In this document: positions 1,227 through 38,692 of the stretch, one piece after another
Position numbering within the stretch: position 1 is the stretch's first letter
How the letters are laid out: each line of letters begins with the position of its first letter
Source of the DNA: a virus
Taxonomy: Duplodnaviria; Heunggongvirae; Uroviricota; Caudoviricetes
Virus record (IMG/VR): IMGVR_UViG_3300024333_000003
Direction: 5' to 3' (one strand)
Length of the DNA: 64,000 bases
Notes under the pieces: generated by a model
Seen by the model: the letters and a program-made list of their open reading frames with translations, nothing else
Told to the model about the DNA's origin: nothing
Database searches by the model: none
Program-made: the position numbers and the translations under genes

Positions 1227-1531
1227 AATTTATTGACGAAGAGTTGAATACATACATAGCCAAGGTATCGGGTTATAAAATCGACACTATGGTCGACGGC
1301 CTGCTTTTATATGCAAAATTAATGAAGTTTAAAGTTTGTTTTAGCGAAAATTATAAGGAACTGGCGGTTATTGCAAATGCAAACGACTTTACATGGTATT
1401 ATGCTGATGAAAACTTCTTGTATATGAGATATAATGAAAACACTCGTGTTCAAACAGTACCTATTTATATAGCCACAAAAGCCGTATATTCGGGAATTAT
1501 AAAATGCTTAGTACAACCCCCATCAAGATGA
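1223..1531 (+). CDS. hypothetical protein, MDxELxxYI paralogue family
   Basis: N-terminus MKFIDEELNTYIAK; ATGA start/stop overlap with the upstream ORF. Confidence 0.45.
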   Translation: MKFIDEELNTYIAKVSGYKIDTMVDGLLLYAKLMKFKVCFSENYKELAVIANANDFTWYYADENFLYMRYNENTRVQTVPIYIATKAVYSGIIKCLVQPPSR

Positions 1532-2742: not shown

Positions 2743-3029
2743 AAAAGCTAACACCTGCATTACAAGTATTAGTCGATCAGAAAGTCCGAGAGAATGCGGA
2801 TAAAATTATCAACACTGTTATAAAGAAAAATGCTGATCGTATTTTAGCCGGCTTAAACGAATATTTACAAAGCGATGAATTTAAACGAAAACTGTTGGCT
2901 ACGGCGAAACTCGAAATTGACGACCGTATAGAAAACGAGAATTTGGATTCAATACTTACTCCAGCAAATTACAGGAAATTTATTGTTAACTTCCAAGATA
3001 CCGTCGCACGTATTCTCGGTGTAAAATGA
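2739..3029 (+). CDS. hypothetical protein
   Basis: 96-aa ORF, start overlaps the PARP stop (ATGA). Confidence 0.4.
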   Translation: MKKLTPALQVLVDQKVRENADKIINTVIKKNADRILAGLNEYLQSDEFKRKLLATAKLEIDDRIENENLDSILTPANYRKFIVNFQDTVARILGVK

Positions 3030-3196
3030 AATTCTTAAAACAAATCGTGGCGGTACTTATAGCCTTTATACCGACATGGTTATTCTTAATAGTAAAGGCC
3101 CTTTCAAGTCCAGAGGGATTTTGACAACAGTTGGTAATGTACTGCAATTGATTTTAATCCTTATCTGGTTTTCATTTATAATATGGGAAAAATAAT

Positions 3197-3550
3197 ATGT
3201 CAAACAAAGCTTTAGCAGCAGCACTCGCCACGTTACAACGTGCCGGGCAACTGAAACAAGTTGGAAGCGCTCTTTGTGTACCAGTGAATGATGAAGTTAT
3301 ACATGATACAGCACTGGAATTGATTGAAAAACAGGGGTTTGTTACTACCCTACAAATTAAAAAGCAGTTACGATCGACCGGTTACTTTGTAAAGCAATAT
3401 CAAATAAGTCAGGCGATGACCGATATGGTCGATAATGGTGAAGTATGTTTTACCAATGTCGATACACACGGAACTACGCATCGCTTATTTTTCGATGAAC
3501 AAACACCGGAACCGATAGCAGTAGCGGCTTATTACACAACAGTAAAATAA
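3197..3550 (+). CDS. hypothetical protein
   Basis: 117-aa ORF. Confidence 0.4.
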   Translation: MSNKALAAALATLQRAGQLKQVGSALCVPVNDEVIHDTALELIEKQGFVTTLQIKKQLRSTGYFVKQYQISQAMTDMVDNGEVCFTNVDTHGTTHRLFFDEQTPEPIAVAAYYTTVK

Positions 3551-3551
3551 C

Positions 3552-4400
3552 ATGTGGAGAGTAGCAATACTCTCCTTCAAGAAAGGTAATATGAAAAAAC
3601 TAAACATATCTAAGGTATTATTATACCTTGTAGCACAAATACAAAAACGATTTAAAGCTGCTGGATATAGCAAAGCCATTATTGGTTTATCTGGTGGGTT
3701 AGACAGTGCAACTGTCGCGGCATTAGCCGTTTTGGCATTAGGTCGGAAAAATGTTAGTTGTATTTATTTGCCGGCACTGGTCTCATCCGAGCGCTCTTTA
3801 AGGTTGGCAGAAGGTTTCTGTACAATTAATGAAGTATTTTTCAAGAGTAGCTCTATACAACCCATAGTCGATCGTTTTTCTGTCGAGTTGCCTATGAATT
3901 GTCTTTCGATTCCATATCAAAATTTACAGGCTCGCGTTCGCGGCGTTGTTCTTATGACTAAAGCAAATATTGATCATGGATTAGTTATTGCAACTGGCAA
4001 CAAATCCGAAAACTTAACAGGTTATTGTACATTATATGGTGACACTGTTGGCGCATTTGAGCCGCTAGGTGATTTATATAAAACCGAAGTAATTGAATTA
4101 GCGTGTTATATTAATAAAATGACTACGGTACAAATATTGAATGAAATTATAGAACGTCCCCCTACCGCCGAATTAGCACCAAATCAAACCGATGAAAAGG
4201 AATTGTTGCCATACGATAAGCTGGATCCGCTGCTAGATGGCTTATTAAAAGATACCTCACATAAGACGCTGGCGCGAAAACTTCGTATTGCATTAGCGGA
4301 TGTTGCGCGTATTGACCGAAGAATGAAAAACTCAGCGTTCAAGCGACGACAAACAGCACCAACTATAAAAATTCCTAAAAGGTGTTATGTCACCAGATAA
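3552..4400 (+). CDS. nadE: NH3-dependent NAD+ synthetase (PP-loop ATP pyrophosphatase)
   Basis: PP-loop IGLSGGLDSATVAALA; ~280 aa, consistent with NadE length and layout; true start may be the Met at 3591. Confidence 0.7.
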   Translation: MWRVAILSFKKGNMKKLNISKVLLYLVAQIQKRFKAAGYSKAIIGLSGGLDSATVAALAVLALGRKNVSCIYLPALVSSERSLRLAEGFCTINEVFFKSSSIQPIVDRFSVELPMNCLSIPYQNLQARVRGVVLMTKANIDHGLVIATGNKSENLTGYCTLYGDTVGAFEPLGDLYKTEVIELACYINKMTTVQILNEIIERPPTAELAPNQTDEKELLPYDKLDPLLDGLLKDTSHKTLARKLRIALADVARIDRRMKNSAFKRRQTAPTIKIPKRCYVTR

Positions 4401-7371: not shown

Positions 7372-7512
7372 GGAGAAACACATGCAACAACTTTCACCCG
7401 AAGATGAAAAGAACATTCGAAATTATGTTGAGGAATTTGAACAACAAGGCAATGCCTCGAACGTATATCATTTACGCATGTTATTAAATGAAATAGACCG
7501 ATTAAGGGAACA

Positions 7513-7827
7513 ATGCCAGATCAAGAACTAGATACTTGGATTTGCCAGGCACTAAAACTTCCGAAAATGGAATTAGATTCTGACACCTTATTTAGTATAA
7601 TAAAATATTTTTTCCCCGCAGCAGATTTTTGTGCCGATGAAAAAACTATAAAAGAAGTTGGTGCCGCATATATAAGGCTATTGAATAGTGACAATGCTAG
7701 AGATTTAATTTTAATTGAAGAGCCCAATATCAAAAAAGTTAATCGAGCTTTATATATTGTTGTTATAGCAATAGCAAAAACTGTCGAACAAGGAAAAGAC
7801 ACAATTGAGGTCTTAAAATTTCTATGA
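7513..7827 (+). CDS. hypothetical protein, MDxELxxYI paralogue family
   Basis: N-terminus MPDQELDTWICQ. Confidence 0.4.
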   Translation: MPDQELDTWICQALKLPKMELDSDTLFSIIKYFFPAADFCADEKTIKEVGAAYIRLLNSDNARDLILIEEPNIKKVNRALYIVVIAIAKTVEQGKDTIEVLKFL

Positions 7828-7901
7828 AAATATCAAAAAAGCTGATCGCTGCCTGGTGGCCATTTTCCTTTGCCCTAAAAGCTATGGAGTCGCACTAAGA
7901 T

Positions 7902-8993
7902 ATGAGTACATTTATAGTACCGATTGTAACTATTAAAACTGTTATTAAACATCCAAACGCCGATTCATTAGATATACTATCGTTTGAAGAAGTATCTTGG
8001 CAATGCGTAGATAAAATTAATACACGCAAACCTGGCGACATGGTAGTATATATTCCAATTGATAGTGTAGTGGACGTCCGTCGGCCAGAATTTGAGTTCT
8101 TAAAATCAAAGGCTAAGGCTGACTATTCTTGTCGTATACGTACAATCAGATTGCGTGGCGAGATTAGCCAGGGGTTGGTTATTTCTATGCCCAGCGATAT
8201 GATAAAATGGCTGTGCGATAAAATTACTGGTCATAAAGACTGCGCACAAGGTATATCGTTTGATATACCAGGGCAGGATGTATCGGAGTATTATGGTATA
8301 AAAAAATATGAGCCACCACCAGAAAGTATACCTCCTTTATCGGCAGGTAATTATCCAAGTTGGTGTGAAAAAAGCGATGCTGAACGATATCAAAACTATA
8401 ATCGCACTATTGAGCCGTTTCGAGACCATGCATTTTATAAAACTATAAAAATGGATGGTGCCAGTATAACGGTATTTTATGATGCGGAAACAGAACATAG
8501 CGGAGTCTGCAGCCGAAACTGGGAAATTAAAGAAAATAGTGATATCACAAGACTTGACAACTATTGGCTTATCGCGAAGAAATATAATTTACTCCAAATC
8601 GTAAAAGATATTGCTATGGATAAGGGTATAAAGCGCCTTGCGTTGCAGGGAGAGATGTGTGGTCCAGGCGTTCAAGGAAATAAGATGGGACTTTCAGAAC
8701 TACAATTTTTTGCCTTTGATATGTATAATGGTGATATTGGTGAATTTATCGAATATCCTTTCTTCATTGCATTATGTCATTATTGGAAAATACCGACCGT
8801 CGAGATTTTAGAGGTTGGTACACTTGGGAAAGAACTCGATACTAATTTTGCGTATGTGTCACAATTGAAATATGATAATGATTTACCTGCCGAAGGTGTA
8901 GTATATGTAGCAGTTAATTCACAGCGTGTAGGTACGCTTGGTAGACTAAAATTTAAATTTATCAACCCAGAATTTTTATTAAAATATGATTGA
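7902..8993 (+). CDS. ATP-dependent RNA ligase with N-terminal tRNA-binding (Myf/CsaA-like OB) domain
   Basis: N-terminal HPNADSLD motif typical of the tRNA-binding OB domain; nucleotidyltransferase motif I KMDGAS (KxDG) in the central region. Confidence 0.55.
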   Translation: MSTFIVPIVTIKTVIKHPNADSLDILSFEEVSWQCVDKINTRKPGDMVVYIPIDSVVDVRRPEFEFLKSKAKADYSCRIRTIRLRGEISQGLVISMPSDMIKWLCDKITGHKDCAQGISFDIPGQDVSEYYGIKKYEPPPESIPPLSAGNYPSWCEKSDAERYQNYNRTIEPFRDHAFYKTIKMDGASITVFYDAETEHSGVCSRNWEIKENSDITRLDNYWLIAKKYNLLQIVKDIAMDKGIKRLALQGEMCGPGVQGNKMGLSELQFFAFDMYNGDIGEFIEYPFFIALCHYWKIPTVEILEVGTLGKELDTNFAYVSQLKYDNDLPAEGVVYVAVNSQRVGTLGRLKFKFINPEFLLKYD

Positions 8994-9600
8994 ACAAAAA
9001 TGGGGGCAAACCCCCACCGCTTCGGAGGAAAAACCGAAGAATATCGAAATAGTTAAAGATCCTGCATTTGTTGAAGTAGTTGCAGTAAATAGATTTTATT
9101 TTTACTCCGAAATTGGTAGGGCGGAGGTTTTACAATTAAACCGACGTTTATTCGAAGCTAGCAACCAGTTATTAATCGATGCGGCTGCACAAGAGCGCCC
9201 ACCCGCAGAAATTTATCTGCACATTAACAGTTACGGCGGAAGTATCTTTGCAGGGCTTGCGGCAATGGACGCGATATTGCATTCAAAAATTCCCGTAGTA
9301 ACCATTATCGACGGCTGTTGTGCGTCAGCGGCTACGTTTTTAAGCGTGGCCGGCAAACGTAGAATTATACGACCTAATGCTTATATGCTTATACATCAGT
9401 TATGGTCAGTAAGTTGGGGAAAATTTCGTGAGCTCGAAGATGATCATAAGAATAATAATAAACTTATGGACAAAATTCGTGAGATTTATGCAAAGTATAC
9501 AAAGATTCCCGCAGAAAAAATAAACGAAATATTAGATCATGATCTGTGGTTTGACGCAAAGACATGCCTAGATTATGGATTAGTGGACGAAATAATATGA
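8986..9600 (+). CDS. clpP: ClpP-family serine protease
   Basis: INSYGGSIFAGLA...GCCASAATF (catalytic Ser)...MLIHQ (His)...YGLVDEII (ClpP C-terminal block). Confidence 0.7.
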   Translation: MIEQKWGQTPTASEEKPKNIEIVKDPAFVEVVAVNRFYFYSEIGRAEVLQLNRRLFEASNQLLIDAAAQERPPAEIYLHINSYGGSIFAGLAAMDAILHSKIPVVTIIDGCCASAATFLSVAGKRRIIRPNAYMLIHQLWSVSWGKFRELEDDHKNNNKLMDKIREIYAKYTKIPAEKINEILDHDLWFDAKTCLDYGLVDEII

Positions 9601-20437: not shown

Positions 20438-21054
20438 ATATAGGTATAGATTGCGACGGTATTATGTTTAATTGGGCTAAGGAATACTCACGTATCATAC
20501 GCAGTATTGGAGGGGAACGATATCCATTGATTACAAACGAAGTGGAAGAAGTCCTGTCATACGATTGGTCAGAATGGTATCCAGCCGATAAAAGTTTGTT
20601 GGATAAGGCCTGGAGAGTCATGACGGAAAAAGAACATTTTTGGGAACACGCCGAAGTGTTAAATCCGAGCCAAGTACAGTATATGTGTGAGCGACTGGAT
20701 AAAGATCCGTATATCAATGTTTATTTTATTACAGCTCGGGTACCGGCAAAAGGAGATACATTAATACGACAGACTATAAAAAGCTTAGAGCTCATAGGAT
20801 GGACGTCACCGCAGGTAATAGTATCATTTCGAAAAGGAGCAATCGCCAGAGCATTAGATTTGCGCTATTTTCTTGACGATCGCGCGGAGAATTGTGTTGA
20901 AGTAGCTATGTATCATGATTCTACTAAAGTATTCATCTTGGATAAACGGTATAATCGCATATTACAAGATAAATATTTTAAAATCACACGTATAAAGCGT
21001 TTAGAAGAGTTTACCGATCAAGTCATAAAAGAACTACATACACCAATGAACTGA
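20386..21054 (+). CDS. HAD-superfamily 5'(3')-deoxyribonucleotidase-like hydrolase
   Basis: N-terminal IGIDCDGIMFNW (DxDG motif I). Confidence 0.45.
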   Translation: MACKNKFLSEFKERMSVNIGIDCDGIMFNWAKEYSRIIRSIGGERYPLITNEVEEVLSYDWSEWYPADKSLLDKAWRVMTEKEHFWEHAEVLNPSQVQYMCERLDKDPYINVYFITARVPAKGDTLIRQTIKSLELIGWTSPQVIVSFRKGAIARALDLRYFLDDRAENCVEVAMYHDSTKVFILDKRYNRILQDKYFKITRIKRLEEFTDQVIKELHTPMN

Positions 21055-21060
21055 ATTTTA

Positions 21061-21070
21061 TGGTATAAGA
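21061..21070 (+). promoter_or_regulatory. extended -10 promoter element TGGTATAAGA at the 5' edge of the non-coding RNA locus
   Basis: same decamer recurs at 25511, 38693, 39360, and with variation at 52641 and 52773, each upstream of a gene start. Confidence 0.5.
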
Positions 21071-21316
21071 ATTGCACTGTACGTAGTTTAATATACATTA
21101 CGAGAGTCTCAAGTTTAACCCCGCACATCTACTAGGGATACGACTCCCCCGAAAGTTTTTGCCCTATCGAAAATACAAAAACTGTAAGATTGTGCGGTCC
21201 AGAAATCACTTGACTTTACATAAGAAATTATGTATATTTGTAAGTGGGGTCGTTGATACAGCGTTATCCCGTTAAGATAAAACCGCTGAATCTCTTATTA
21301 TCTCACTATTATTTTT

Positions 21317-21389
21317 GGGCCTATAGCGTAATTGGGAACGCAGTAGCTTTGCAAGCTAAAGACTCGGAGTTCAATTCTCCGTAGGTCCA
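21317..21389 (+). tRNA. tRNA-Ala: tRNA-Ala (anticodon UGC)
   Basis: manual fold: acceptor gggccta/taggtcc with a G3:U70 wobble (the Ala identity element); D-stem gcgt/acgc; anticodon loop ttTGCaa; T-arm cggag-ttcaatt-ctccg; discriminator A; no encoded CCA. Confidence 0.85.
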
Positions 21390-22096
21390 CTAAGCTGAGT
21401 CGGACGCAAGATCGTTATCTTATCTTACCTTACAAAGACAAAAAACACGGTCTTCAATCATTTATTCAGCTTCCAAGTTTAGGGGTCGAATCAATCATCG
21501 TTATCTTTCGCATAAGAACCCGAGCACAAAGTCCTGTGCTCAAGTCGATAATATCGACAGGTTAGGCAACCGGTGGTTAAACATTATCCCTTTAATTTAA
21601 AACAATCAACACTGAACCGTGGTAGAATAATGGGTAGTCTGCCCATAATACGTAGTGGCTGCGAAGATCAGCTGCTGGCAGTACAGTATACATGCGTAAA
21701 GGTAAAACGGCCAGAGTCGTACAACTCTGAGTCTCGTAAGAATCGGACAAATCGCTTATAGACAATCCTGAGGACTGTATCCGATTGGAGGTAGATTCCT
21801 CCCAGAATTCCACGCAAGTGGAACCATAATATATTAGGCCAAATATATGGTCTGTGCCTGAATAACGTAGGTATTTCCAAGGCTTATAGGTAATCAGTAG
21901 CCCTGTCGATTCATTGTTGATCTTATAAGGAGTCGTTATGAACACACTTTCCAAACAAGATATATTTGAAAGATCCGCCGCATGCTTATCGCATAATGTG
22001 GACTTCATTACATTACAGCCTTTTAAAGAAGATATGACAACACATGCTTATTCCTTAGAGGATACTGTAGTCTTTACACAATTTGTACCAATTAAT

Positions 22097-22167
22097 CCAA
22101 ATGCACATAAGGCGTAACCATAACATTGGTATCGCGGAAAATGTAGGTTCGAATCCTACCATTTGGG
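22097..22167 (+). ncRNA. tRNA-like element with canonical T-arm (gtagg-TTCGAAT-cctac) and acceptor-like pairing ccaaatg/catttgg but no regular D or anticodon arm; candidate Y-RNA-type tRNA mimic
   Basis: perfect GGTTCGAATCC T-arm and a 7-bp terminal stem; internal spacing is too short for a standard tRNA. Confidence 0.35.
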
Positions 22168-22775
22168 CTATCGGGTCGAATCGGCTTGGTTATCAATCTA
22201 AGAAAAAAGAACGCGGTAGAGTCCGCAACTAGCCTAGGAATGTAAAAGGCAATCTCCGAGCTCAATATTTATCCGGTAATTTTTAGAAAAGAATATAATA
22301 TCCTTGTTTTGCTTAAATGCAAGTAAGTGATACTTTAAAGAAATTAGAGTTTTTAAGATATTAAAATAGTTGTACGTGACAGTGGTTGCTTACTTGCGAC
22401 TGCTGAAGTCGGTAGTGACGTTCCGCGCTAGGCCGCAAAGCGACCGATGCTTCACTGGTGGAGGTGCCATTCTTAGCTACTGGGAATACACAGTAGTATG
22501 CGTTGCTATTCCGCCAAAAATAGAATAGCATTAGTTTTTCTTGAGGCCGAACAAAGTTGGTTATCATACTTGAATAAAATCAATGGTAATACCATAGCAT
22601 TCGCGAATATGTGAGTAGCGAGTGCGTGTTACTTATAACATAAATAATGTCGCCGGTTAGCGTAGAAACCGATGCCTTGTTATTGGAGCTGCAATCTAAT
22701 AATGCTGCTTGTCAAAAGCATCCGACTTTAAACATTGCCTCATTTTTTTACATCCTAATAGAAAGGGAGTCGAAC

Positions 22776-24437
22776 ATGAACAAGAAAACACCATACTCGC
22801 AAACTGCGAGACAATTAAATCCAAATACACCCGTACCACAATCACAACCAATTCCCGGCAAGACTATGGTACAAAACGCCGCCGGTGGGTACGTGTTTGA
22901 ACTGGATAAGTGGCAAAGACTAGACAGATTTTTAATACTTGGTAGCGAAAGCGGTAATTATTACATTGGCCCGCTAAAGATGACGCAAGATAACGCCAAG
23001 AACGTTGCCGCATGTATTAAAGAAGACGGCAAGCGTGTCGTAGATGTTACAGTGCAAATTTCCGATTCTGGAAGAGCCGCAAAGAACGATCCAGCCTTAT
23101 TTGTTTTGGCGATGTGTGCTGCGGCGGATGATATTGATACGCGTCAATATGCTTTGCAATCATTACAAAAAGTAGCTCGCACCGGAACTTATTTATTCCA
23201 CTTTGTTGAATACATTGACAAAATGCGCGGCTGGAGTCGTGGATTACGTACTGCCATCGGTAACTGGTATACCAATCGCAAGATTGAGTCACTAGCAGTA
23301 CAGCTGGCAAAATATCAATCTAGGGACGGCTGGTCGCATCGCGATGTGTTGCGTTTGGCGCATCCACACCCTGAGACCGAAGCACAGACTTTGGCATTTA
23401 AATGGGCTGTCGACCGTATCAAACAGCAAAAAGATAAGGATTCAAAGTATTTTAACATGGATGCTTATGAGCATGATATGTCCAAGTTAAAAGAATTGTT
23501 ACCACTTATCGGCGCTTACGAAGAAGTGAAAGCTACCGACAATAAGAAACGTATTGTCGAGCTTGTACAAGAATTTGAACTTCCGTTGGAATTAGTTCCT
23601 ACGGAAAAGCGCACAAAACAGGTTTATGATGTGATTATACCTAATTTAGGTATTACTGCATTGATCAGGCAGTTACCAACGCTAACAAATGCCGGAGTTC
23701 TTGGTGAAGTAGGATGTGACAATACAAAGTATATAGTGGAGCAATTCACTAATCCTGAAGTATTGAAGAAAGGTCGTGTCCATCCAATACAAGTTTTAAT
23801 AGCACAGGCAACATACGGTGGAGGAAAAAGTTTCCGTGGGACATCAACATGGAGCCCAGTTCGAAAGTTAGTGGATGCATTAGAAGATTGCTTTTATTTA
23901 TCTTTTGGTGCCGTTGAACCGACGGGAAAACGTATTTTAATAGGATTGGACATTTCAGGCTCAATGAGTATGGGGTCAGTAATTGGTTCTGAACAATTAC
24001 GCCCATGCCAAGTTACCGCAGCTATGTCGATGGTAACCATGCGCACTGAAAAGGATTATGTTATAAAGGGGTTCTCGACATCGTTTTGTGATCTCGGTAT
24101 CTCTCCAAAACAAGATCTAGCCACAGTAATGGCTAAAGTGGCCAACCAAAACTATGGTGGTACTGACTGTTCGTTACCGATGATATACGCCGAACAGCAC
24201 AAAATACCTATCGATGCTTTTGTGGTCTATACGGATAATGAAACTTGGGCTGGGCACGTACATCCAATCCAGGCACTGAAATCTTATCAGCAAAAGATGG
24301 GTATTCCTGCACGATTAATCAGTGTTGCCACATCGGCTACAAACGGAAGCATCGCAGACGATTCTGCTTACACCATGAACGTCGTAGGATTCGATGCATC
24401 TGCACCGAAGATTATAAGTGACTTTATTAGAGGTTAA
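22776..24437 (+). CDS. Ro60/Rsr-like protein (TROVE-type N-terminal region plus C-terminal vWA)
   Basis: ~550 aa; C-terminal MIDAS motif LIGLDISGSMSM; probable start at ATG 22776 with RBS gggag (the ORF track begins at 22647); lies immediately next to the tRNA/tRNA-like RNA locus, as rsr genes do. The TROVE part is inferred and not verified by motif. Confidence 0.5.
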   Translation: MNKKTPYSQTARQLNPNTPVPQSQPIPGKTMVQNAAGGYVFELDKWQRLDRFLILGSESGNYYIGPLKMTQDNAKNVAACIKEDGKRVVDVTVQISDSGRAAKNDPALFVLAMCAAADDIDTRQYALQSLQKVARTGTYLFHFVEYIDKMRGWSRGLRTAIGNWYTNRKIESLAVQLAKYQSRDGWSHRDVLRLAHPHPETEAQTLAFKWAVDRIKQQKDKDSKYFNMDAYEHDMSKLKELLPLIGAYEEVKATDNKKRIVELVQEFELPLELVPTEKRTKQVYDVIIPNLGITALIRQLPTLTNAGVLGEVGCDNTKYIVEQFTNPEVLKKGRVHPIQVLIAQATYGGGKSFRGTSTWSPVRKLVDALEDCFYLSFGAVEPTGKRILIGLDISGSMSMGSVIGSEQLRPCQVTAAMSMVTMRTEKDYVIKGFSTSFCDLGISPKQDLATVMAKVANQNYGGTDCSLPMIYAEQHKIPIDAFVVYTDNETWAGHVHPIQALKSYQQKMGIPARLISVATSATNGSIADDSAYTMNVVGFDASAPKIISDFIRG

Positions 24438-28986: not shown

Positions 28987-31167
28987 ATGGATCAACAAAA
29001 TCCATATTCAGCAGATATTGCTAATTCTTTACATTTAGCAAGAGAATTAGCAATTGATGCTGGTAATCCAACAATAGAGAGTGAACACATTCTCTTAGCC
29101 ATTATACAACTAAAAACAGCTGGCTATAGTTTTTTAGCGAAACAGCTATCTGTGCCAACCTTGCAGATTGCTCTTAGAAAGATAATTAATCAGAACTCAT
29201 CTTCAGTGACGGTAGAAGGTAACATCTTGTTATCTAAACCAGTTTCACAGGCTTTACTACAGTTACGACGTTTTGCTAATGCAGACAGCAAAGATTTTTT
29301 ACTTGCGCTAGCGGCGCAAGCTGGTTGTACAGCACAATTAGTATTGGAACGACACGGATTTAATGTGCGTACCAATGTTTCAACAACCGAGCCTAAAACT
29401 AATGCTGAGCCCACTGATAATGCAACACCCGCATTAGACGCATTTTCCATCGATTTAACAAAACTTGCATCAGAGGCAAAACTTGATCCGGTAGTAAATA
29501 GGATGAAGGAAATAAATCGTATAACGGAAATTTTAGGGCGTCGTAAGAAGAATAATCCTATTCTTGTCGGTGAGCCGGGGGTCGGAAAATCTGCGATTGT
29601 CGAGGGGCTAGCTTTAAAATTGGCAAAAGGCGAAGTAGCCCACTCGTTGCAGGGAAAGCGCATTGTCTCTTTAAATATGGCATCTATCGTGGCGGGCACT
29701 AAGCTGAGAGGTCAATTTGAGGAAAGACTAAAAGCCGTTATTGACGAACTTCAAAAGAATAAAGATATAATAGTTTTTATAGACGAAGTTCATACTTTGA
29801 TTGGATCAGGTGGACCCGAAGGTACCGGAGATGCGGCTAACATGCTTAAACCTGCGTTAGCACGCGGCGAAATACAGTGTATTGGTTCAACTACGTACGA
29901 TGATTATCGTAAGTATATTGAACGCGATCCGGCGCTTGAACGTCGATTTCAAAAACTCACTGTAAATCCACCTACAATAGAAGAAACTATAACTATTTTA
30001 AATCAAATAACACCGCTTTACGAGGAATATCATAAAGTAAAATATGCTGAAGGATTAACCAACATGATTGTTAATCTCAGCGATCGTTATATCACTGACA
30101 GATATTTACCTGATAAAGCTATTGATATATTTGATGAAGCAGGTAGTGTTGCGCACATATCTGAACAATCCGAAGTTACTGAAGAGACAGTACGTAAAGT
30201 GGTATCTACGATGACTGGCGTACCGATGACTTCTATCGGGCAATCGGAACGGGATCGCTTAAAGGATTTGGAAAGCAATCTAAATAAAGTTGTTGTTGGG
30301 CAAGAAGAAGCAATAGCTATGTTAGTAAAAGCAGTCAAACGCGCACGAACAGGCGTACAAAATGTAAAAAAACCATTCAGTGCGTTACTACTAGGTCCAA
30401 CTGGTGTTGGTAAGACAGAGACAGCAAAACAACTTGCTAAATGTTTATTTGATTCCGAAGATGCTTTGCTACGTGTGGATATGAGTGAACTGTCTGAAGC
30501 TCATTCTATATCTAAATTAATAGGATCACCTCCTGGCTATGTTGGTTATGATGAAGGCGGCCAATTAACTGAACGCGTGCGACAAAAACCATATTCTATT
30601 GTATTGTTAGATGAAGTGGAAAAAGCACACCATGATGTGTTTAACGTGTTTCTACAAGTTTTTGACGACGGTATTTTAACAGATGGACGTGGAAAAAATG
30701 TTAACTTTAAAAATACAATTCTTCTAATGACCTCTAATATAGGTACGGTAGAAGCAGCTAAATCTAAACTCGGATTTAGCAACGATAATGATAAAAAGTC
30801 CAAAGACGCAAAACGCAACGAAGCGTTAAAAACCCATTTTCGTCCAGAATTTTTGAACAGAATCGATGAGATAGTACATTATAATGATTTATCTCAAGAG
30901 GCTGTAAAGAAAATTTTAGAGTTATATTTAAAACAAATGAGTGTACAAGTAATTTTATCCCCAGAAGCAACTGATTATCTAGTTGCTAATGGCTATTCTA
31001 AGGAATATGGAGCTCGTCCTCTACGCAGACTTGTACAAAATAAAATCGAATCCCCAATAGCTGATCTATTAATAGATTCTCCGGAACTAGATTTATTCGA
31101 TGCAGCTGTTGTTGAAGACACGATTAAAGTTACACCACAAATTATAGTAAAAGAACAGGAAATATAA
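28987..31167 (+). CDS. ClpA/ClpC-type AAA+ unfoldase (two AAA modules plus Clp_N repeats)
   Basis: N-domain repeats; Walker A GEPGVGKSAIVEGLA (D1) and LLLGPTGVGKTETAKQLA (D2); sensor/arginine blocks GARPLRR. Confidence 0.75.
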   Translation: MDQQNPYSADIANSLHLARELAIDAGNPTIESEHILLAIIQLKTAGYSFLAKQLSVPTLQIALRKIINQNSSSVTVEGNILLSKPVSQALLQLRRFANADSKDFLLALAAQAGCTAQLVLERHGFNVRTNVSTTEPKTNAEPTDNATPALDAFSIDLTKLASEAKLDPVVNRMKEINRITEILGRRKKNNPILVGEPGVGKSAIVEGLALKLAKGEVAHSLQGKRIVSLNMASIVAGTKLRGQFEERLKAVIDELQKNKDIIVFIDEVHTLIGSGGPEGTGDAANMLKPALARGEIQCIGSTTYDDYRKYIERDPALERRFQKLTVNPPTIEETITILNQITPLYEEYHKVKYAEGLTNMIVNLSDRYITDRYLPDKAIDIFDEAGSVAHISEQSEVTEETVRKVVSTMTGVPMTSIGQSERDRLKDLESNLNKVVVGQEEAIAMLVKAVKRARTGVQNVKKPFSALLLGPTGVGKTETAKQLAKCLFDSEDALLRVDMSELSEAHSISKLIGSPPGYVGYDEGGQLTERVRQKPYSIVLLDEVEKAHHDVFNVFLQVFDDGILTDGRGKNVNFKNTILLMTSNIGTVEAAKSKLGFSNDNDKKSKDAKRNEALKTHFRPEFLNRIDEIVHYNDLSQEAVKKILELYLKQMSVQVILSPEATDYLVANGYSKEYGARPLRRLVQNKIESPIADLLIDSPELDLFDAAVVEDTIKVTPQIIVKEQEI

Positions 31168-32138: not shown

Positions 32139-32521
32139 ATTACTGGTTATTAGATTGGGCAAATATTACACGTGGTACACCGGATATACTAAGTCAAGGA
32201 CACTCTGAACATGATGCTAAAACTTTGACATCTACGCAACTGTTAACAACAGAACCAGATTTTAATTTTTTAGCGCGTTTTGTAATAAGTCCCAATGAGA
32301 TAGAACAATTTCCAACAGAATTTCATATTGACGATGTCTTAAATAATAGACTTTCTATCGATCTAATTAAAGGAGCCAAACATTTTTTTCTACTTGGTGA
32401 TCGATATGAAATTGTCGGAAAATTGTCAAATAGTATCAATAGTTATTTTAAGATTCAAAATATAATGGGGTTCCACGTTGTCTTAATTAAGACATTTAGG
32501 TTAGGGGCTCCACTAGATTAA
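32048..32521 (+). CDS. hypothetical protein
   Basis: 157-aa ORF overlapping the previous ORF in another frame; lower confidence. Confidence 0.3.
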   Translation: MEKFKGHCFGAQKRNCIGLRYCMATCTDKINYWLLDWANITRGTPDILSQGHSEHDAKTLTSTQLLTTEPDFNFLARFVISPNEIEQFPTEFHIDDVLNNRLSIDLIKGAKHFFLLGDRYEIVGKLSNSINSYFKIQNIMGFHVVLIKTFRLGAPLD

Positions 32522-32522
32522 A

Positions 32523-32553
32523 ATAGGGTACGTTGTACCCTATTTTTTTTTAT
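32523..32553. terminator. bidirectional Rho-independent terminator between convergent genes
   Basis: atagggtac-gtt-gtaccctat hairpin flanked by A-run and T-run. Confidence 0.65.
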
Positions 32554-32557
32554 TATC

Positions 32558-35500
32558 TTAATAAAATTGCTTCTTTTCAGGATCTAGTTCTTGTCCGAAA
32601 GAGGTACCTTGTAAATAAGCCGGCATTGGATCCGTGCCTTTTAAATTAGTTTCGTAACCCATCGCAGCCCCCTCCTGAATGGTTTGTTTTAATCTGTTGG
32701 TTGTTAAGCGACTTAACCAATCTTCTGACTCCAATGGCAAGACATCAATACTTTTGAAGAATGGTGTATATGCTATTAATGGTTTTCCATTTAAAGCCAA
32801 TTCACGGTTTATTTTTTTCACCGCTGTAACAGGTACTGTATCACCACGTAGCCAGGTTACTGGAGTATCGGTCGGTATATCAGTTATTTCTGCAAAATTA
32901 CTAGTTCCTCTTATTACCGTCTCGATTGATTTTCGTGCAAACTTTTTATCATATATATTGTTTATTTCATCGGCCGTGTATAATTGCGCTGTCAAATGAT
33001 CCTTTAATTGCGAAAGCTCTTGCGGTTTTATACTACCCATGGTTAGTGCATCACCCTTCTTTATAGTTTGCCCAACAGAAACTTTAATTGTCAATCCGTG
33101 TGGTATATAATATCGTTTGTCTTGAATATACAAATCATGACCGCCGGCTGGATTCGGTAAAATAGATTTTACAATTCCCGCCTCTTCTGCTAACACTGCT
33201 TTATCTACGACGGTTTGAGGAACATATAATAATTCCTTCAAACGAGGGAATCCGGCCAAAATACCTCCTTTAGTACCAGCTACTCCGCCTGTATGAAATG
33301 TCTGCAATGTTAGTTGTGTGGAACGCTCGGTGATAGCTTCTGCGTCTAATATACCAACATTTTCGCCGATACGTGGCGGGGTTCCGTTGGCCATTAGTCC
33401 ATAACATTTAATGCATACACCGCCATCCGATTCACACAATAAAGGAGAACGTACCGGAAGTAACTCAATCTTTTTACGTCTTGCCTTGTTAATTAAATCT
33501 ACATCAACTAATTCATTACGTACACCTACACCACCAATTGTTTTTGCCAAATATCTGTCAAATATTTCTTTACTGTCAATAGCTATTTCTATATATTCTG
33601 GTGTGCCGCAATCATCTTCTACTACTAATAAGTTTTTGGTATTGAATAACAACTCTTTATTTAGTCCACCGCTTTCCTGAGTATTGATAGATTTATCTAC
33701 AACGCCTTTTCTAGCGCCATAAGATTGATTCCAATAATCGAACGTATCTACTCCTTCTGACCACGATTTTTTTATCGGAAATGGAATAGGATTACCGTGA
33801 ACGTCTTCTACTACACCAGGCATTGATAATATTTGTGTTATTTGCCCAGCTTTATTAGTACTTCCACTTCGTAGCATATCATAGAATCTATTTTTATCTT
33901 TTAATTCCTTATCTTGTTCGTGCTGTATTTCTTTTTTTGCGGCCATATATAATTCTATACGCTTTTCCGCAGGTGTTTTAGAAGTAATTTGTTTCTCGTA
34001 CTTATTTAATATTCTATCTCTAAATGAGCGATCAATAGCTAAATCTGTTATTGAAAGGGTGCTTCCACGATCTATGGCATATTGTCTTCCAACGTTTTTA
34101 AAATGATCCATAATTTTTCCAAATTCGTTAGGATGATTTTTGTACAACACGTCAATTAGATTTTTTACATATTTAGAATCAAATTCTTGTTTATAATCCT
34201 GCAATTCTTTTGGTAGGGCGCTATTAACTAGTAATTTTCCTAGCGTTATAGTTTTACCATGCATTATAAATTGATCTTGCATATCTAATCCAGCACGTAA
34301 TGCATCCTTTGCTGTTTTAAATGTTCTACGAGTATTTTTACCTGGAACTGTTAAAAAATATAATCCAAGCTGATAATCCTGACTCAGCTGATGCATATGT
34401 TCTTTATCACCTGCTTTATGTAGATTTTTACTTGGCAACATATCTTTGGCTTCATTTACTGCTGCCTCTGATACCGGAACATGTATGCTTGCAGTATCTC
34501 CATCGAAGTCCATATTTAATCCTTTTACAATTAATGGATTGACTCGGATACTCATACCGTCAAAACGTTCCGGATAAAAAGCTTGCACATTATGTTTATG
34601 TAATGAAGGTGCACGATTCATTAATACCGGACGTTCTTTTATTACTACATTTAAAGCTTGATCCGCGATAGGAGACCATTCTCGATATTGTTTTATCGCT
34701 TCTATCGGTTTATAGCCCTGTCGAACTAATTCACGTATAACAAATGGCTTCATAATACTACGAAGCATTGGTTCAGGTAAACCGATCTGATCGATACCTA
34801 TAGATGGTTCTACAGTTACTGTTGATCGCGCAGATAAATCTTGTCGACGGCCCCAAACTTTATTCTGTATGAAACCTTCTTTTGGAGAATCTCCCGCCAA
34901 CGTCTTTAACAATCCTTCATATTTTTCACGAGTATAGGTTATTGGATCAATTAACCCATCCAGCGCGCGCAGGCCTTGATATAAAGCAACGCGGTTGGTT
35001 TTGTTAAATTCTGTAGGGTCAACACCAGATTTTTTAATTTCCTTCAGCTGATTATTTATAAGTGAAATATTATGGTAATGCTTATTTACAGGCGATACCT
35101 GTAAATCTCCCGATGGTAATGGATAGATCGGTCTGAAAATCGGGGGCAACACTGGGATAGCCTTCATAATGTAAGCTTCTTCTGGAGCCAACTTAAAATC
35201 TTTAAGCACTTGTAAATATCTAACTCTTTTATTTAACATATTTACTTGAGTCGGCCCCGCGGTCTGTAGGGCTTTGCGAGTTTTTAACAGCTCTTTGGGC
35301 ACATCTATATTTCTTAGTAACTTATGTATTAATTTTGTTCCAGTTAAGCCGTCGATTTGTAGCTCTTCTCTCATAACCTGATCATATTGTCGACCATTTA
35401 ATCCTATTAATGATTGTATAGCTGATTCAAATATAGGATTGGGCATAGGTTCAGCTAATAGCATATGATTCCAATTTGTACCTTTTAGTCCACCACCAGT

Positions 35501-38500
35501 TAACTTTGGATCAAAAAGACCTCCTTCTATTTCTGCGAGATCTTTTCCACGCAACATATGTCCCGCATCTTTTATTTCTCCAGAACTCCACGTCAAAACG
35601 TCTTTTGTCGTAGCCGGAAATAACTTCATTTTGTAACCATTTTTAGATACATTAATACCGGCAGCCTTCATATATGATAACATTTTATCGAATACAAAGT
35701 TTTTTTGCGGCCTTGGTGGAGGAAAGCCTAATTGAAGATTACGCCAGTACTCATCGTTTTTCTGAGATTTCACCGCCGCAAATTCAAATAAATTCTGTCT
35801 GGCACCGTGCGCCAGTAATGCGTATGTTTGTAGAGGATCTATTGATTGCCCACCCTCTTCTCCCTTTGCAGGTTGTTCGTTTGCATCATATGTTCCAGGG
35901 ATATCACGACTCTTAAATTTATGCTCTACTATGTGTAATAGTTTGAGATAATATTTTACACCCCAGAATACAGGGGCCTTTGTCATCGGTTTGCCATCTT
36001 TGGTGTATAAAATTTCTTCGGCGGGGATCTTATTATTTTTCAGTTCCCCTATAATATTCTTTAAGTAATCTTCGCCAGAGAAGTTTTTTACAATATATGG
36101 TTTCCCAGTTTTATAAGCTATTTTTCCTGCAGCGGTCTCAAGCATCTGACCCATATTCATACGACCCACTACACCATGAGGGTTGAATAAAATATCTATA
36201 CGTGTGCCATCTTTTGTATATGGAGCTTCGTCATCTGATATAATTTTTGTTACTATACCTTTGTCTCCATAACGTGCAGCTAATTTGTCACCAACGACTA
36301 AAGGTTGTTCTTCATAAATCCACACTATAATAGAATTACCTATTCTACGAACATATTTTATAATGCCTTCATGTTCTCCATCCCATATTAAAGAACGATC
36401 ACGATATGGATTAGATATTACTTTGTGCATCTGTTTTAATATTTTTTCGGTATCCGTCAATTCCACGCGAGAAAGATATGCTATCAGTACCTCGCCTGGG
36501 AGAACGCGTTCACCCTCTTTTATTACACCAGTTTCATCAAGTTTTGCAAGGTTTATGTTGTTAATTTTTTCTGGAAAATACGAAACAAATTTTTGTTTAT
36601 CTAATATACCGGTCGCGCTTGTTTGCAGACTTTTCTTTAATATTACTGTTGATGTTAATTTATTGGCTAATGATTCGGTCACAACTATACCGTCTTCAAA
36701 ATTATATCCATACCATGGCATATAAGCCACAGTAGCATTGATGCCATAAGCATAATTACCAGATGCATCTGTAAAATTATTTTTTGCCAGTACATCAAAA
36801 GGTTTTATACGATCTCCTGGCTTTACTAGCGGGGTCGATTGTAAGAAACTATCTTGGTTAAGCGGAAAATCATTATATAAACCAATTTTATGTTTTTCAC
36901 CTGCATCTGTTTTTATAGTAATGTAATCTTTATCTACAGCAGTAACTACGCCTTTGCCCACATCATCCCTGATTCTTGTAGTGGCGATCATACCAAGTAT
37001 TTCGTCCATTGTACGCCCGCTCGGAGCCTGTACTTTTACTAATGGGCTTTCTGCATTTTTTAATGGTACCGCCTGACTTGCCATTTTTGCCGCAACTGCA
37101 GCGCGGTTTCCTGAATTTGTGCCCAGAAATGGTATTAAATTTGTTGTCCAGCCAAACATAGATGTTGGATCAAGCAAGTAAGCATCTACTTCCGATTTTG
37201 GCACTTCATCGACTTGCCCGCGATACATTATTTTTATTTGATCGTGCTGAGCTCTCCCTTTTTCATGTTGATCCGGATATCCAATTTTCATGTCATAAAA
37301 CTCGATTGGAGTAACTTCTTTCTGTGTGCCATTTGGCATTATGATAGTAGTAGTTAAATCTTTACCGCGTTTTCTTACTCCTAATCCTAGACTTAAAGTA
37401 ACGCCGACTTTATGACCTTCGGGAGTATGCAATGGATCTAAATATCCTAGATGCGTTGGATGTACATCACGTGTTTTAAAAGTTATTGAATGTTCGGATT
37501 GTATGGCACCAGTACCGGTTACGGTTGTCTTTCTCCATTCCGAGGCCATCTCCACTGGATTAGTTTGAGGAGAAGGATTACTCAAGTCACCTGTTGTGAA
37601 AAATTTTCGTATTGGTTCCGTATAAGTATCAGTAGAAATAATTTCTCGTATGTTCTTTTTATTATCTGTGCGATAACGCAAATTTTTGACTACATCCTTT
37701 GTTGTTTTAGAAAAGTATTCTTCTAATTGTTCGTCTACCGTGTATAATTGTTTAAACAACAATGAATCACGCTCATCTTCAGGAGTCTCACCTTTCATAA
37801 CTTTTAATAATTTAGTTGCGCTGGCCAGTAGGGCGGTCGGTGATACTCGATCATACGAATCACCTAATGTTATTTTTGTTACCTCCGGATCCATTCTAGT
37901 ATCGTCAAAATATGTACGTATATTTTCTAACGCTTCGTTATATCCTAATCGTTGCCGTCTTAATTTCTCATATAATAACGGTATTTCTTTTTCTGCTTCA
38001 TTTATTCCCGCCGCCTTGTTTTTGTCAAACAGCTCTTGCCCCCACGCCTTTATCATTTCTTGCTGCGTAGTACCTAAGGCATTTAATAATGTATAAAGAT
38101 GAAAACGTTGTTTTGCTACATAAAGATAAAATACACCTTCAGCCGGATCCAATTCCATTTTAAAATTATAACCGACAGCAAGATTAAAGAACGATTCCAT
38201 TTCACCATTTTCTTTTTGTCGTGTATAAACTCCGGGCTTTAGACGAAATTGATTTATAGTAGTATATTCGTTACCACCTATGATCATTGAAAATCTGTCG
38301 GTAAGTTTTGGAATATTTGCTATCTTCATATCTTTTATTTCATCTATAATCATGTTTGTTTGATTATCTCGCAAACGGAACGAAGCATAAACAGGTATTT
38401 GCCAGGTTTTTCCAAGTAACTTAGTCTCTTTTTGGGCTGGTAAATCCCGGTCGTCCAGCACATCTTTTATCTTTGGCGATCCGATTAGTTCCAAGGTATG

Positions 38501-38638
38501 ATGTGTGCCGATAACAGGAAATTGTCTTTTTATAGATTGTTGTAAAGCATTTTGAATGAATTCATTTTGACGCGCCGGATTCAGTTTGTTTTCTGCGCTA
38601 CCACGTGATTCAGCATGTACTGGTATGGATAATGGCAT
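32558..38638 (-). CDS. DNA-directed RNA polymerase, fused beta-beta' subunit (single 2026-aa polypeptide)
   Basis: beta-type block AARYGDKGIVTKIISDDEAPYTKDGTRIDILFNPHGVVGRMNMGQMLE (cf. RpoB GRHGNKGV...NPLGVPSRMN) followed, in the same ORF, by beta' catalytic block GLNMDFDGDTASIHVPVS (NADFDGD); RBS aggag upstream. Confidence 0.8.
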   Translation of the reverse strand: MPLSIPVHAESRGSAENKLNPARQNEFIQNALQQSIKRQFPVIGTHHTLELIGSPKIKDVLDDRDLPAQKETKLLGKTWQIPVYASFRLRDNQTNMIIDEIKDMKIANIPKLTDRFSMIIGGNEYTTINQFRLKPGVYTRQKENGEMESFFNLAVGYNFKMELDPAEGVFYLYVAKQRFHLYTLLNALGTTQQEMIKAWGQELFDKNKAAGINEAEKEIPLLYEKLRRQRLGYNEALENIRTYFDDTRMDPEVTKITLGDSYDRVSPTALLASATKLLKVMKGETPEDERDSLLFKQLYTVDEQLEEYFSKTTKDVVKNLRYRTDNKKNIREIISTDTYTEPIRKFFTTGDLSNPSPQTNPVEMASEWRKTTVTGTGAIQSEHSITFKTRDVHPTHLGYLDPLHTPEGHKVGVTLSLGLGVRKRGKDLTTTIIMPNGTQKEVTPIEFYDMKIGYPDQHEKGRAQHDQIKIMYRGQVDEVPKSEVDAYLLDPTSMFGWTTNLIPFLGTNSGNRAAVAAKMASQAVPLKNAESPLVKVQAPSGRTMDEILGMIATTRIRDDVGKGVVTAVDKDYITIKTDAGEKHKIGLYNDFPLNQDSFLQSTPLVKPGDRIKPFDVLAKNNFTDASGNYAYGINATVAYMPWYGYNFEDGIVVTESLANKLTSTVILKKSLQTSATGILDKQKFVSYFPEKINNINLAKLDETGVIKEGERVLPGEVLIAYLSRVELTDTEKILKQMHKVISNPYRDRSLIWDGEHEGIIKYVRRIGNSIIVWIYEEQPLVVGDKLAARYGDKGIVTKIISDDEAPYTKDGTRIDILFNPHGVVGRMNMGQMLETAAGKIAYKTGKPYIVKNFSGEDYLKNIIGELKNNKIPAEEILYTKDGKPMTKAPVFWGVKYYLKLLHIVEHKFKSRDIPGTYDANEQPAKGEEGGQSIDPLQTYALLAHGARQNLFEFAAVKSQKNDEYWRNLQLGFPPPRPQKNFVFDKMLSYMKAAGINVSKNGYKMKLFPATTKDVLTWSSGEIKDAGHMLRGKDLAEIEGGLFDPKLTGGGLKGTNWNHMLLAEPMPNPIFESAIQSLIGLNGRQYDQVMREELQIDGLTGTKLIHKLLRNIDVPKELLKTRKALQTAGPTQVNMLNKRVRYLQVLKDFKLAPEEAYIMKAIPVLPPIFRPIYPLPSGDLQVSPVNKHYHNISLINNQLKEIKKSGVDPTEFNKTNRVALYQGLRALDGLIDPITYTREKYEGLLKTLAGDSPKEGFIQNKVWGRRQDLSARSTVTVEPSIGIDQIGLPEPMLRSIMKPFVIRELVRQGYKPIEAIKQYREWSPIADQALNVVIKERPVLMNRAPSLHKHNVQAFYPERFDGMSIRVNPLIVKGLNMDFDGDTASIHVPVSEAAVNEAKDMLPSKNLHKAGDKEHMHQLSQDYQLGLYFLTVPGKNTRRTFKTAKDALRAGLDMQDQFIMHGKTITLGKLLVNSALPKELQDYKQEFDSKYVKNLIDVLYKNHPNEFGKIMDHFKNVGRQYAIDRGSTLSITDLAIDRSFRDRILNKYEKQITSKTPAEKRIELYMAAKKEIQHEQDKELKDKNRFYDMLRSGSTNKAGQITQILSMPGVVEDVHGNPIPFPIKKSWSEGVDTFDYWNQSYGARKGVVDKSINTQESGGLNKELLFNTKNLLVVEDDCGTPEYIEIAIDSKEIFDRYLAKTIGGVGVRNELVDVDLINKARRKKIELLPVRSPLLCESDGGVCIKCYGLMANGTPPRIGENVGILDAEAITERSTQLTLQTFHTGGVAGTKGGILAGFPRLKELLYVPQTVVDKAVLAEEAGIVKSILPNPAGGHDLYIQDKRYYIPHGLTIKVSVGQTIKKGDALTMGSIKPQELSQLKDHLTAQLYTADEINNIYDKKFARKSIETVIRGTSNFAEITDIPTDTPVTWLRGDTVPVTAVKKINRELALNGKPLIAYTPFFKSIDVLPLESEDWLSRLTTNRLKQTIQEGAAMGYETNLKGTDPMPAYLQGTSFGQELDPEKKQFY

Positions 38639-38692
38639 AATATTCTCCTAATAGTATATTATAATATATATATAAAACAAAATCAAGTCTTT

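Follow-up and report, generated by a model that had tools for sequence, protein, structure and literature searches.

The 64,000-nucleotide stretch of tailed-phage DNA from the IMG/VR virus record IMGVR_UViG_3300024333_000003 (hereafter, the window) carries a gene that joins the β and β′ subunits of a bacterial-type RNA polymerase (RNAP) in one chain of 2026 amino acids (aa). Cellular RNAP normally has separate β and β′ subunits, which are assembled on an α-dimer scaffold. We identified the fused ββ′ gene (32558..38638) from the list of open reading frames (ORFs) and its translation, from the Pfam matches, β first and then β′, and from an identical public protein (P0001). It lies on the minus strand, as do all features of the gene given below. 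The gene is a single uninterrupted ORF with an ATG start, 2026 codons and a stop. An AGGAG ribosome-binding site lies 7 nt 5′ of the ATG, and the G+C content (0.37) is the same as that of the adjoining genes. Judged from its sequence, the product is most probably the catalytic core of a cellular-type RNAP that belongs to the phage itself, a DNA-dependent enzyme of the two-barrel, multisubunit family in which a complete but minimal β is joined to a minimal β′.

The Pfam β domains come first in the ORF (Rpb2_3 at aa 357-417; Rpb2_6 at aa 563-926, E 5e-61). The β′ domains follow in the same frame at aa 1116-1812 (Rpb1_1, Rpb1_2 with E 1e-24, Rpb1_3, Rpb1_4, and Rpb1_5 with E 2e-22). Performing a phmmer search of the PDB, we obtained the B. 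subtilis β′ subunit as the top match (E 2e-104). An earlier note on this DNA had described one chain carrying β and then β′. The single ORF, the domain order and the alignment to E. coli RpoB and RpoC all bear this out, and the β and β′ catalytic motifs quoted there are present at aa 783-794, at aa 819-831 and from aa 1375 onward. The same note had put the chain at about 700 aa shorter than the two E. coli subunits together; the shortfall is 723 aa (1342 + 1407 = 2749 aa in E. coli).

The β half has the double-psi β-barrel of a bacterial-type β, with the lysine motif GDKxxxRxGxKG and the motif NPxGVxxRMNxGQ. The active-site lysine motif reads GDKLAARYGDKG (aa 783-794, 36257..36292) and aligns to E. 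coli β 1064-1075. The second motif, found by translation and alignment, reads NPHGVVGRMNMGQ (aa 819-831, 36146..36184). The β′ half has the barrel with the Mg2+ loop, the bridge helix and the trigger loop of a bacterial-type β′. By alignment, the catalytic Mg2+-binding loop NMDFDGD occupies aa 1375-1381 (34496..34516) and is accompanied by an HVPVS block. The bridge helix (YGARKGVVDKS...; aa 1640-1664, 33647..33721) aligns to E. coli β′ 765-812. The trigger loop TERSTQLTLQTFHTGGVAG (aa 1770-1788, 33275..33331) is without the sequence insertion SI3, and the retained trigger-loop sequence is TQLTLQTFHTGG. The second zinc site (Zn2) consists of C1677, C1735, C1742 and C1745 (33398..33616), aligned to E. 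coli β′ C814/C888/C895/C898. The whole protein has exactly four cysteines, and all of them are these Zn2 ligands. In summary, the elements for nucleotide addition, namely the β lysine motif, the DFDGD loop, the bridge helix, the trigger loop and Zn2, are all intact.

The fusion junction, INVSKNGY|KMKLFPAT (aa 995-1010, 35609..35656), was placed by the family alignment. Here the β C-terminal helix (...FDKMLSYMKAAGINVSKNGY) continues directly into the β′ N-terminal strand (KMKLFPATTKDVLTWSSGEIK); there is no linker, and about 17 β′ N-terminal residues are missing. An AlphaFold2 model of this junction segment, which covers aa 880-1330 and was built with 52 homologs, reached a mean predicted local distance difference test (pLDDT) score of 85 and a predicted template modeling (pTM) score of 0.75. 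In the model, two short adjacent strands flank the junction within blocks of mean pLDDT ~90 or higher, suggesting that they form a tight β-hairpin. When we compared the model with the PDB using Foldseek, the top matches were the N-terminal parts of bacterial β′ chains (probability 1.0). The join sits where the β C-terminus and the β′ N-terminus already meet in the clamp of bacterial RNAP.

The fusion is kept across a wide range of homologs. We collected the best 120 clusters at 90% identity, which run from 100% down to 31% identity, and 113 of these keep the fusion. By length, 76 of the 120 are 1950-2250 aa, 33 are longer through insertions and about eight end at query aa ~1449. The identical protein occurs on 12 independent contigs from JGI, ENA and Logan, the longest being 215 kb; thus, the fusion is not an assembly or frameshift artefact. 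Searching with the β′ half against 1.84 billion representatives of 50%-identity clusters, we found that nearly all of the best 150 clusters are ~2000 aa or longer and match β′ at residues ~1000-2000. A scan with the junction segment recovered at least 370 relatives in IMG/VR; the best 80 of them align contiguously across the junction, on contigs of up to 202 kb. Against two 80%-identical relatives, the nonsynonymous proportion of differences (pN) was 0.125 and the synonymous proportion (pS) was 0.72, the latter saturated. Across the junction (aa 950-1080), pN was 0.085 against the same two relatives. The ratio of nonsynonymous to synonymous substitution rates (dN/dS) is roughly 0.05 for the fused gene, which is under strong purifying selection. 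The family is large and found almost only in metagenomes, and the fusion is a family trait.

The longer homologs deserve a separate remark. The 33 members of this class are 2300-3540 aa long (e.g. P0006, P0010, P0051, P0055, P0058 and P0100), with insertions at query positions ~407, 585, 788, 1250, 1381 and 1780. Four of these sites, ~407, 788, 1381 and 1780, coincide with or adjoin the TPEG, GDK..GDKG, DFDGD and trigger-loop motifs. The longer proteins carry Pfam LAGLIDADG, intein-splicing and Hom_end domains, and we interpret the insertions as probable inteins, up to four per protein. Inteins at catalytic motifs are the usual pattern of essential enzymes.

To compare the chain with the E. 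coli subunits, we aligned 38 family members, the protein of Vibrio phage D69 and E. coli ββ′ using MAFFT. The β module comprises aa 1-1002 (35633..38638) and the β′ module aa 1003-2026 (32561..35632). BLASTP matched query aa 29-234 to E. coli β 46-254, aa 276-750 to β 431-918 and aa 758-997 to β 1045-1337. In the second half, aa 1070-1785 matched E. coli β′ 141-939 and aa 1787-2001 matched β′ 1129-1346. Relative to E. coli, the MAFFT alignment shows deletions only and no insertion of 8 aa or more. The deletions take away most of the β sequence insertion SI1 plus some of the lobe (β 228-419), βSI2 (β 935-1046) and β′SI3 (β′ 945-1103), as well as several shorter loops and the extreme termini. 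A further deletion of 32 aa removes the β′ N-terminal zinc ribbon, so that LTGGGLKGTNWNH (aa 1046-1058, 35465..35503) stands in for E. coli β′ C70-C88. The ribbon cysteines (C70/C72/C85/C88 in E. coli) are absent from the query, whereas Zn2 is kept, and the deletion is seen in every displayed member of the family alignment, D69 included. The separate β′ of a Rhizobium phage retains a CxC...CxxC ribbon; among the phage enzymes compared, the loss of the ribbon therefore accompanies the fused family.

In bacteria, the β flap tip docks region 4 of σ, and the β′ clamp helices dock region 2. Both surfaces are present at full length in the fused chain. The flap-tip helix region lies at aa 728-740 (36419..36457; aligned to E. 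coli β 880-925). The clamp helices, a coiled coil after the lid, lie at aa 1181-1228 (34955..35098; aligned to E. coli β′ 245-335) and are modelled as helices. In the counterpart of the rifampicin pocket (aa 350-375, 37514..37591), the classical resistance positions are altered: E. coli D516 is replaced by P, H526 by E and S531 by T. Because of these replacements, we predict that the enzyme is insensitive to rifampicin, and that the phage would transcribe independently of the host β and β′. The altered pocket might make the enzyme independent of inhibitors, and perhaps of phage-encoded modifiers, that are aimed at the host RNAP.

The above features raise the question of how such a chain would work. 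Fusions of rpoB and rpoC are known in Helicobacter and its relatives and in Wolbachia, and an engineered E. coli tether also joins the β C-terminus to the β′ N-terminus. These examples show that the fused topology is compatible with an active enzyme. The cellular fusions are of full size (~2800-2900 aa), lie on the chromosome and function together with α2 and ω; in comparison, the query is 2026 aa long and phage-borne, and has neither a zinc ribbon nor an added linker. On its sequence, the phage enzyme is probably functional. The tether would make the 1:1 assembly of the two barrels automatic and would take over part of the assembly role of the α dimer, so that the α-dimer scaffold and ω are probably not needed. 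By analogy with the phiKZ and AR9 RNAPs, we consider it reasonably likely that the enzyme needs neither α dimer nor ω. For initiation, a phage σ encoded outside the window would dock on the β′ clamp helices and the β flap tip. Since these docking surfaces are kept and the cultured relatives have a σ70-family factor, σ-dependent initiation appears the most likely mode. We lean, by a little, toward promoter recognition through such a phage σ on TTGAyT-N17-TATAwT-like promoters.

The best phage matches in GenBank, obtained by tblastn, are the Vibrio phages D69/D181/D148 (187 kb) and Salmonella phage Arash (181 kb). The D69-type proteins are 28-30% identical to the query over 94-95% of the protein, and Arash gp206 is 30% identical over aa 20-1449. 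Arash gp206 and D69 gp261 align across the same β-β′ junction as the query. D69 has the same zinc-ribbon deletion, a loss shared by the Arash/D69 type. These phages and the source of the query are tailed phages of ~180-215 kb with a homologous portal. The relatives differ in that their β′ is split after the catalytic barrel, at query aa ~1449, where the query is continuous. Thus, they encode a pair of genes, one for a 1525-1527-aa β plus β′N (gp206 in Arash) and one for a ~606-aa β′C (gp216 in Arash). In a neighbor-joining (NJ) tree rooted on E. coli, which is not robust, the split forms make up one clade nested among the fully fused forms. This placement suggests that the β′ fission is a derived state and that the fusion is ancestral within the family. 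Neither the Arash paper (PMC10585845) nor the GenBank annotation of the Arash/D69-type phages describes the fusion.

Further features of these relatives bear on the role of the enzyme. The RNAP gene directly follows the portal gene in Arash (gp204, then gp206), in D69 and in the metagenomic relative L010; in another relative, L009, a portal homolog lies ~6.6 kb from the RNAP gene. Arash has only one RNAP gene set. Its σ is conserved in D69/D181/D148 at 44% identity, and the Arash and D69 σ proteins match Pfam Sigma70_r3. As a side observation, the Arash structural protein gp7 (L008 7425-8105) is weakly similar (E 8e-5, 26% identity) to β′ aa ~1671-1796 (window 33251-33625). The stretch covers Zn2 to the trigger loop, and the similarity may be due to chance.

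In the window, the RNAP gene stands alone as a monocistronic unit with promoter-like and terminator-like sites. A scan of the 106-nt intergenic region upstream of it found a σ70-type promoter-like site, TTGATT-N17-TATAAT (38658..38686, minus strand), 20-30 nt upstream of the ribosome-binding site. A terminator scan found a 12-bp palindromic hairpin with flanking A and T runs (32520..32546, no strand assigned) between the 3′ end of the RNAP gene and the convergent gene; it is likely a bidirectional terminator. The motif TTGAyT-N14-19-TAwAwT occurs six times in the window, and five of the six copies fall in the 8% of the DNA that is intergenic. The intergenic copies lie upstream of the tRNA gene, a primase-helicase gene, a glycosyltransferase gene, a minus-strand ORF and the RNAP gene. 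As judged from its sequence, this motif is compatible with the host holoenzyme and with a phage holoenzyme alike. We also observed a recurring intergenic pattern, TTGAyTT or TTGCwT followed after ~17 nt by (C)GTATATT, at 21210, 25507(-), 26812, 38686(-), 42342, 43588, 53606 and 62451(-). It represents a candidate promoter class common to the tRNA, primase-helicase, HNH, glycosyltransferase and RNAP genes.

When the enzyme would act can be read in two ways. In the first, which we hold at somewhat below an even chance and base on analogy with Arash, the polymerase would be packaged in the virion and injected with the DNA and a phage σ for early transcription; it might also serve later phases. 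The N4 virion RNAP (vRNAP), the phiKZ vRNAP and the crAss-like gp66 are role models for such an enzyme. In the virion proteome of Arash, gp206 has the most spectra of all proteins (3516), gp216 likewise ranks among the most abundant ones, and the σ gp10 was also detected (PMC10585845). Packaging also fits the gene order in Arash, D69 and L010, whose structural module has the RNAP gene next after the portal gene, and the single RNAP gene set of Arash. In the window, the gene is read from the minus strand like the portal and structural block, whereas its neighbors are on the plus strand.

Several results weigh against packaging or against σ-guided initiation. The homology to Arash is only ~30%. 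Among the proteins detected with the Arash virions are ribonucleotide reductases, RNA ligases and helicases, and the authors of that study allow for carry-over of abundant intracellular proteins (PMC10585845). In the window, 17 kb separate the RNAP gene from the portal gene; it is not part of the structural block but stands within a block of RNA-repair and replication genes. Its promoter-like site belongs to the class that also precedes the tRNA and primase-helicase genes. A generic σ70 scan compared with shuffled sequences gave no enrichment (71 sites found, 74.5 expected), and we settled on the narrower motif only after looking at the regions in question; for both reasons, the intergenic motif is suggestive only. 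The earlier note had proposed a search of the genome for α-, ω- and σ-like genes. Run on the 64-kb window, which is less than one-third of a ~215-kb genome, this search found no σ, α or ω homolog, and the flanks of five relatives yielded none either. Ten unannotated ORFs contained no σ70, RpoA or RpoZ domain (Pfam, E up to 1), and tblastn with Arash gp10 against the window and five related loci returned noise only, with normal and very relaxed settings. Two IMG/VR scans detected an Arash-type σ on 11 and then 17 contigs, and none of these was among the 80 contigs with a fused RNAP. Since the two sets of contigs do not overlap, σ dependence in the fused clade rests on the retained docking surfaces.

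In the second reading, which we regard as tenable at less than even weight, the polymerase is not a virion protein. Early on, the phage would rely on the host RNAP to express the gene from its σ70-type promoter, and the single-chain enzyme would afterwards be in charge of middle and late transcription. This reading draws on the near-consensus promoter-like site, on the monocistronic unit with its terminator hairpin, and on the location of the gene among replication and RNA-repair genes that share the intergenic motif. However, a phage holoenzyme with a σ70-family factor could read the motif equally well, the gene is part of the structural module in the relatives, and Arash virion preparations contained the protein.

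The most far-reaching proposal combines several of the above: a self-assembling, α- and ω-independent single-chain RNAP, packaged and injected with a phage σ, would make a large tailed-phage lineage of ~150-215 kb independent of the host RNAP from the first minute. Taken as a whole, we consider this unlikely. If it were true, phages would have arrived at virion-delivered transcription in a fourth, independent way, besides those of N4, phiKZ and the crAss-like phages, and the chain would be the smallest "cellular-type" RNAP core to occur naturally as one polypeptide. These predictions are directly testable because the relatives Arash (Salmonella) and the D69 type (Vibrio) are isolated and culturable.

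We compared the fused chain with the phage RNAPs already described. Multisubunit-RNAP-encoding Caudovirales (mReC) have deep-branching β and β′ (Weinheimer & Aylward 2020, PMC7481178). They resemble the query in being metagenomic tailed phages, some larger than 200 kb, with compact bacterial-type β/β′ that retain NADxDGD (PMC7481178). In the window, too, β and β′ are recognized by cellular models and accompanied by the caudoviral hallmarks portal and endolysin, as in mReC. We compared mReC through the lengths and gene identifiers published in Supplementary Data 2; the entries examined list β at ~1000 or ~1365 aa and β′ at ~905 or ~1005 aa (PMC7481178). The common size class, β of ~1000 plus β′ of ~905 aa, is close to the two halves of the query (PMC7481178). 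The difference is that β and β′ are separate genes in every metagenomic-phage row examined of that table, whereas the query is one ORF (PMC7481178). The mReC text applies the word "fused" to crAssphage alone (PMC7481178). Among the rows seen, several mReC contigs carry two β/β′ sets (~1365+1005 and ~1000+905 aa), which recall the virion and non-virion pairs of phiKZ-like phages (PMC7481178).

The phiKZ/AR9-type RNAPs are also two-barrel enzymes homologous to β/β′; they function without α and ω and are insensitive to rifampicin (PMC7598289, PMC7824862). Each is made up of four to five highly diverged polypeptides and initiates without σ, and the phages have two paralogous sets, whereas the query is one little-diverged chain. 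Their β and β′ are each in two or three diverged pieces, a division absent from the query; the phiKZ split into β′N and β′C lies at a point comparable to the Arash-type β′ split. Searching PHROGs, we obtained strong matches to 25354 (β′-like, E 1e-108) and 24349 (β-like, E 1e-79), and weak matches to the phiKZ/AR9 group (E 1e-28 to 1e-8). The single chain, its high similarity to the bacterial subunits and these weak matches agree with the earlier view that the enzyme is not of the split, diverged phiKZ-like type. The crAss-like gp66, YonO and P23-45 TMP-RNAP resemble the query in having both barrels in one polypeptide, and some of them are virion-packaged. That branch is like YonO and RNA-dependent RNA polymerases (RdRP) and has no detectable similarity to COG0085/COG0086 (PMC7481178). 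Unlike these single-chain enzymes, the query aligns end to end with bacterial β and β′.

In the full-text literature searched, which covers subscription journals poorly, we found no description of a fully fused phage ββ′, and the jumbo-phage comparative papers that we checked do not mention such an architecture. As far as we found, the single-chain architecture is apparently undescribed. A fused phage ββ′ is not conceptually unprecedented, since β-β′ tethering and phage β/β′ genes were both already known. The earlier note had called a compact, well-conserved fusion unusual in a phage. The chain is a true fusion and both compact and well conserved, but it is not rare in sequence space, given the large metagenomic family. 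Moreover, the isolated phage Arash and Vibrio phages D69/D181/D148 have the same junction, and bacterial-like phage β/β′ (mReC) have been published since 2020, though as separate genes.

The compactness of the chain has wider meaning for RNAP structure and evolution and for phage biology. Being 26% shorter than the E. coli pair, it marks SI1, SI2, SI3 and the β′ zinc ribbon as dispensable, and its compactness makes it a candidate for structural studies as well as for the design of orthogonal transcription systems. The phage lineage to which it belongs is very large and has hardly been studied. The nested position of the split forms in the NJ tree, which is not robust, also bears on the debate over the origin of phage β/β′; in evolution, the split forms may have arisen from fused ones, the reverse of what is usually assumed.

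The genome context is that of a phage. The window is 92% coding, with 82 ORFs that are mostly small and often overlapping, and it has one tRNA gene (tRNA-Ala). It encodes a portal protein (55573..57534, minus strand; PHROG 16240; 29% identity and E 2e-84 to Arash gp204), an amidase endolysin (59435-59962) and two HNH homing-endonuclease-like genes. The portal, with its homology to Arash gp204, is proof of a phage origin. The neighbors of the RNAP gene are a Lon-like protease, a D5-type primase-helicase, an AAA ATPase and HNH endonucleases; the chromosomal ribosomal-protein/rpoBC operon of a cellular fused RpoBC is absent, and the context is that of a phage. No rRNA gene was found in the 64 kb, and no ribosomal-protein gene among the ORFs scanned with Pfam and PHROGs (most ORFs of at least 150 aa and a few smaller ones). 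The closest relatives, at 80-81% identity, are viral contigs of IMG/VR. A scan of GTDB with one genome per species found distant cellular rpoBC only (26-32% identity) and gave no clue to the host. A megablast search of GenBank phages with 12 kb around the gene gave no match.

A cellular contig, from a reduced endosymbiont or from a genome with a Helicobacter- or Wolbachia-like fused rpoBC, is very improbable. Fused rpoBC does occur in some bacteria, the polymerase sequence is clearly of bacterial type, and one homolog is labelled as a protein of a Brocadiales metagenome-assembled genome (MAG). Against this stand the Arash-homologous portal, the endolysin, the HNH homing endonucleases, the dense coding by many small overlapping ORFs, and the lack of rRNA and ribosomal-protein genes in what was scanned. 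The phage genes, the viral relatives and the distant GTDB matches effectively refute the cellular reading. The earlier claim of a phage-borne gene thus stands, and the endosymbiont that had been named as its refutation is excluded. The least probable reading, that the fusion is a frameshift or mis-assembly artefact or a decaying inactive relic, has nothing specific in its favor beyond the occasional chimerism of long metagenome ORFs, and is rejected by the conservation data: the identical protein in three data sources, the junction kept in frame by over 100 diverged clusters and by the 80 best-matching IMG/VR loci, and the low dN/dS with all catalytic residues intact.

Several other features of the window were noticed. 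Only two small ORFs lie between the gene for a Lon-like ATP-dependent protease (28987-31167, plus strand; 726 aa; PHROG 4871, E 2e-234) and the 3′ end of the RNAP gene, and a ClpP-like protease gene lies at 8986-9600 (plus strand). Two tandem paralogous genes for HNH/"D5-like regulator" endonucleases (42362-43306 and 43623-44600, plus strand) share four diverged copies of a 48-nt module. A reverse transcriptase (RVT_1, 338 aa; 45903-46919, plus strand) is followed by 521 nt of non-coding DNA; L009, a relative with 47% identity, has one close to its RNAP gene as well (7463-8392). The repeat search of the window found no template/variable repeat pair, and a diversity-generating retroelement is thus not supported.

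An RNA-repair cluster (16092-24437) comprises a T4 Rnl1-like RNA ligase, RlaP, a PNKP kinase/phosphatase, the tRNA-Ala(TGC) gene (21317-21390) and a gene for a Ro60/TROVE plus vWA protein (22647-24437). Between the tRNA and the Ro60 gene lies ~1.2 kb of largely non-coding DNA (21391-22646). Searching the whole window with Rfam, we found no Y RNA beside the Ro60 gene, and only tRNA-Ala matched; a divergent Y-like RNA could nevertheless lie near it. A protein with PARP catalytic and WGR domains (412 aa) is encoded ~0.8 kb upstream of an NAD synthase gene, within 1504-4400 (plus strand), and the pair may be an NAD-linked module for counter-defence or host modification. An 826-aa protein (49726-52206, plus strand) has a Major Vault Protein (MVP) shoulder domain (E 9e-27) and a vault repeat, with no PHROG match; an MVP-like protein seems unusual in a phage. 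Finally, a perfect direct repeat of 168 nt (63341-63508 and 63833-64000, 492 nt apart) at the window edge spans the 5′ end of the gene 62702-63889 (minus strand); it may reflect an internal repeat in the protein or a feature of the assembly.

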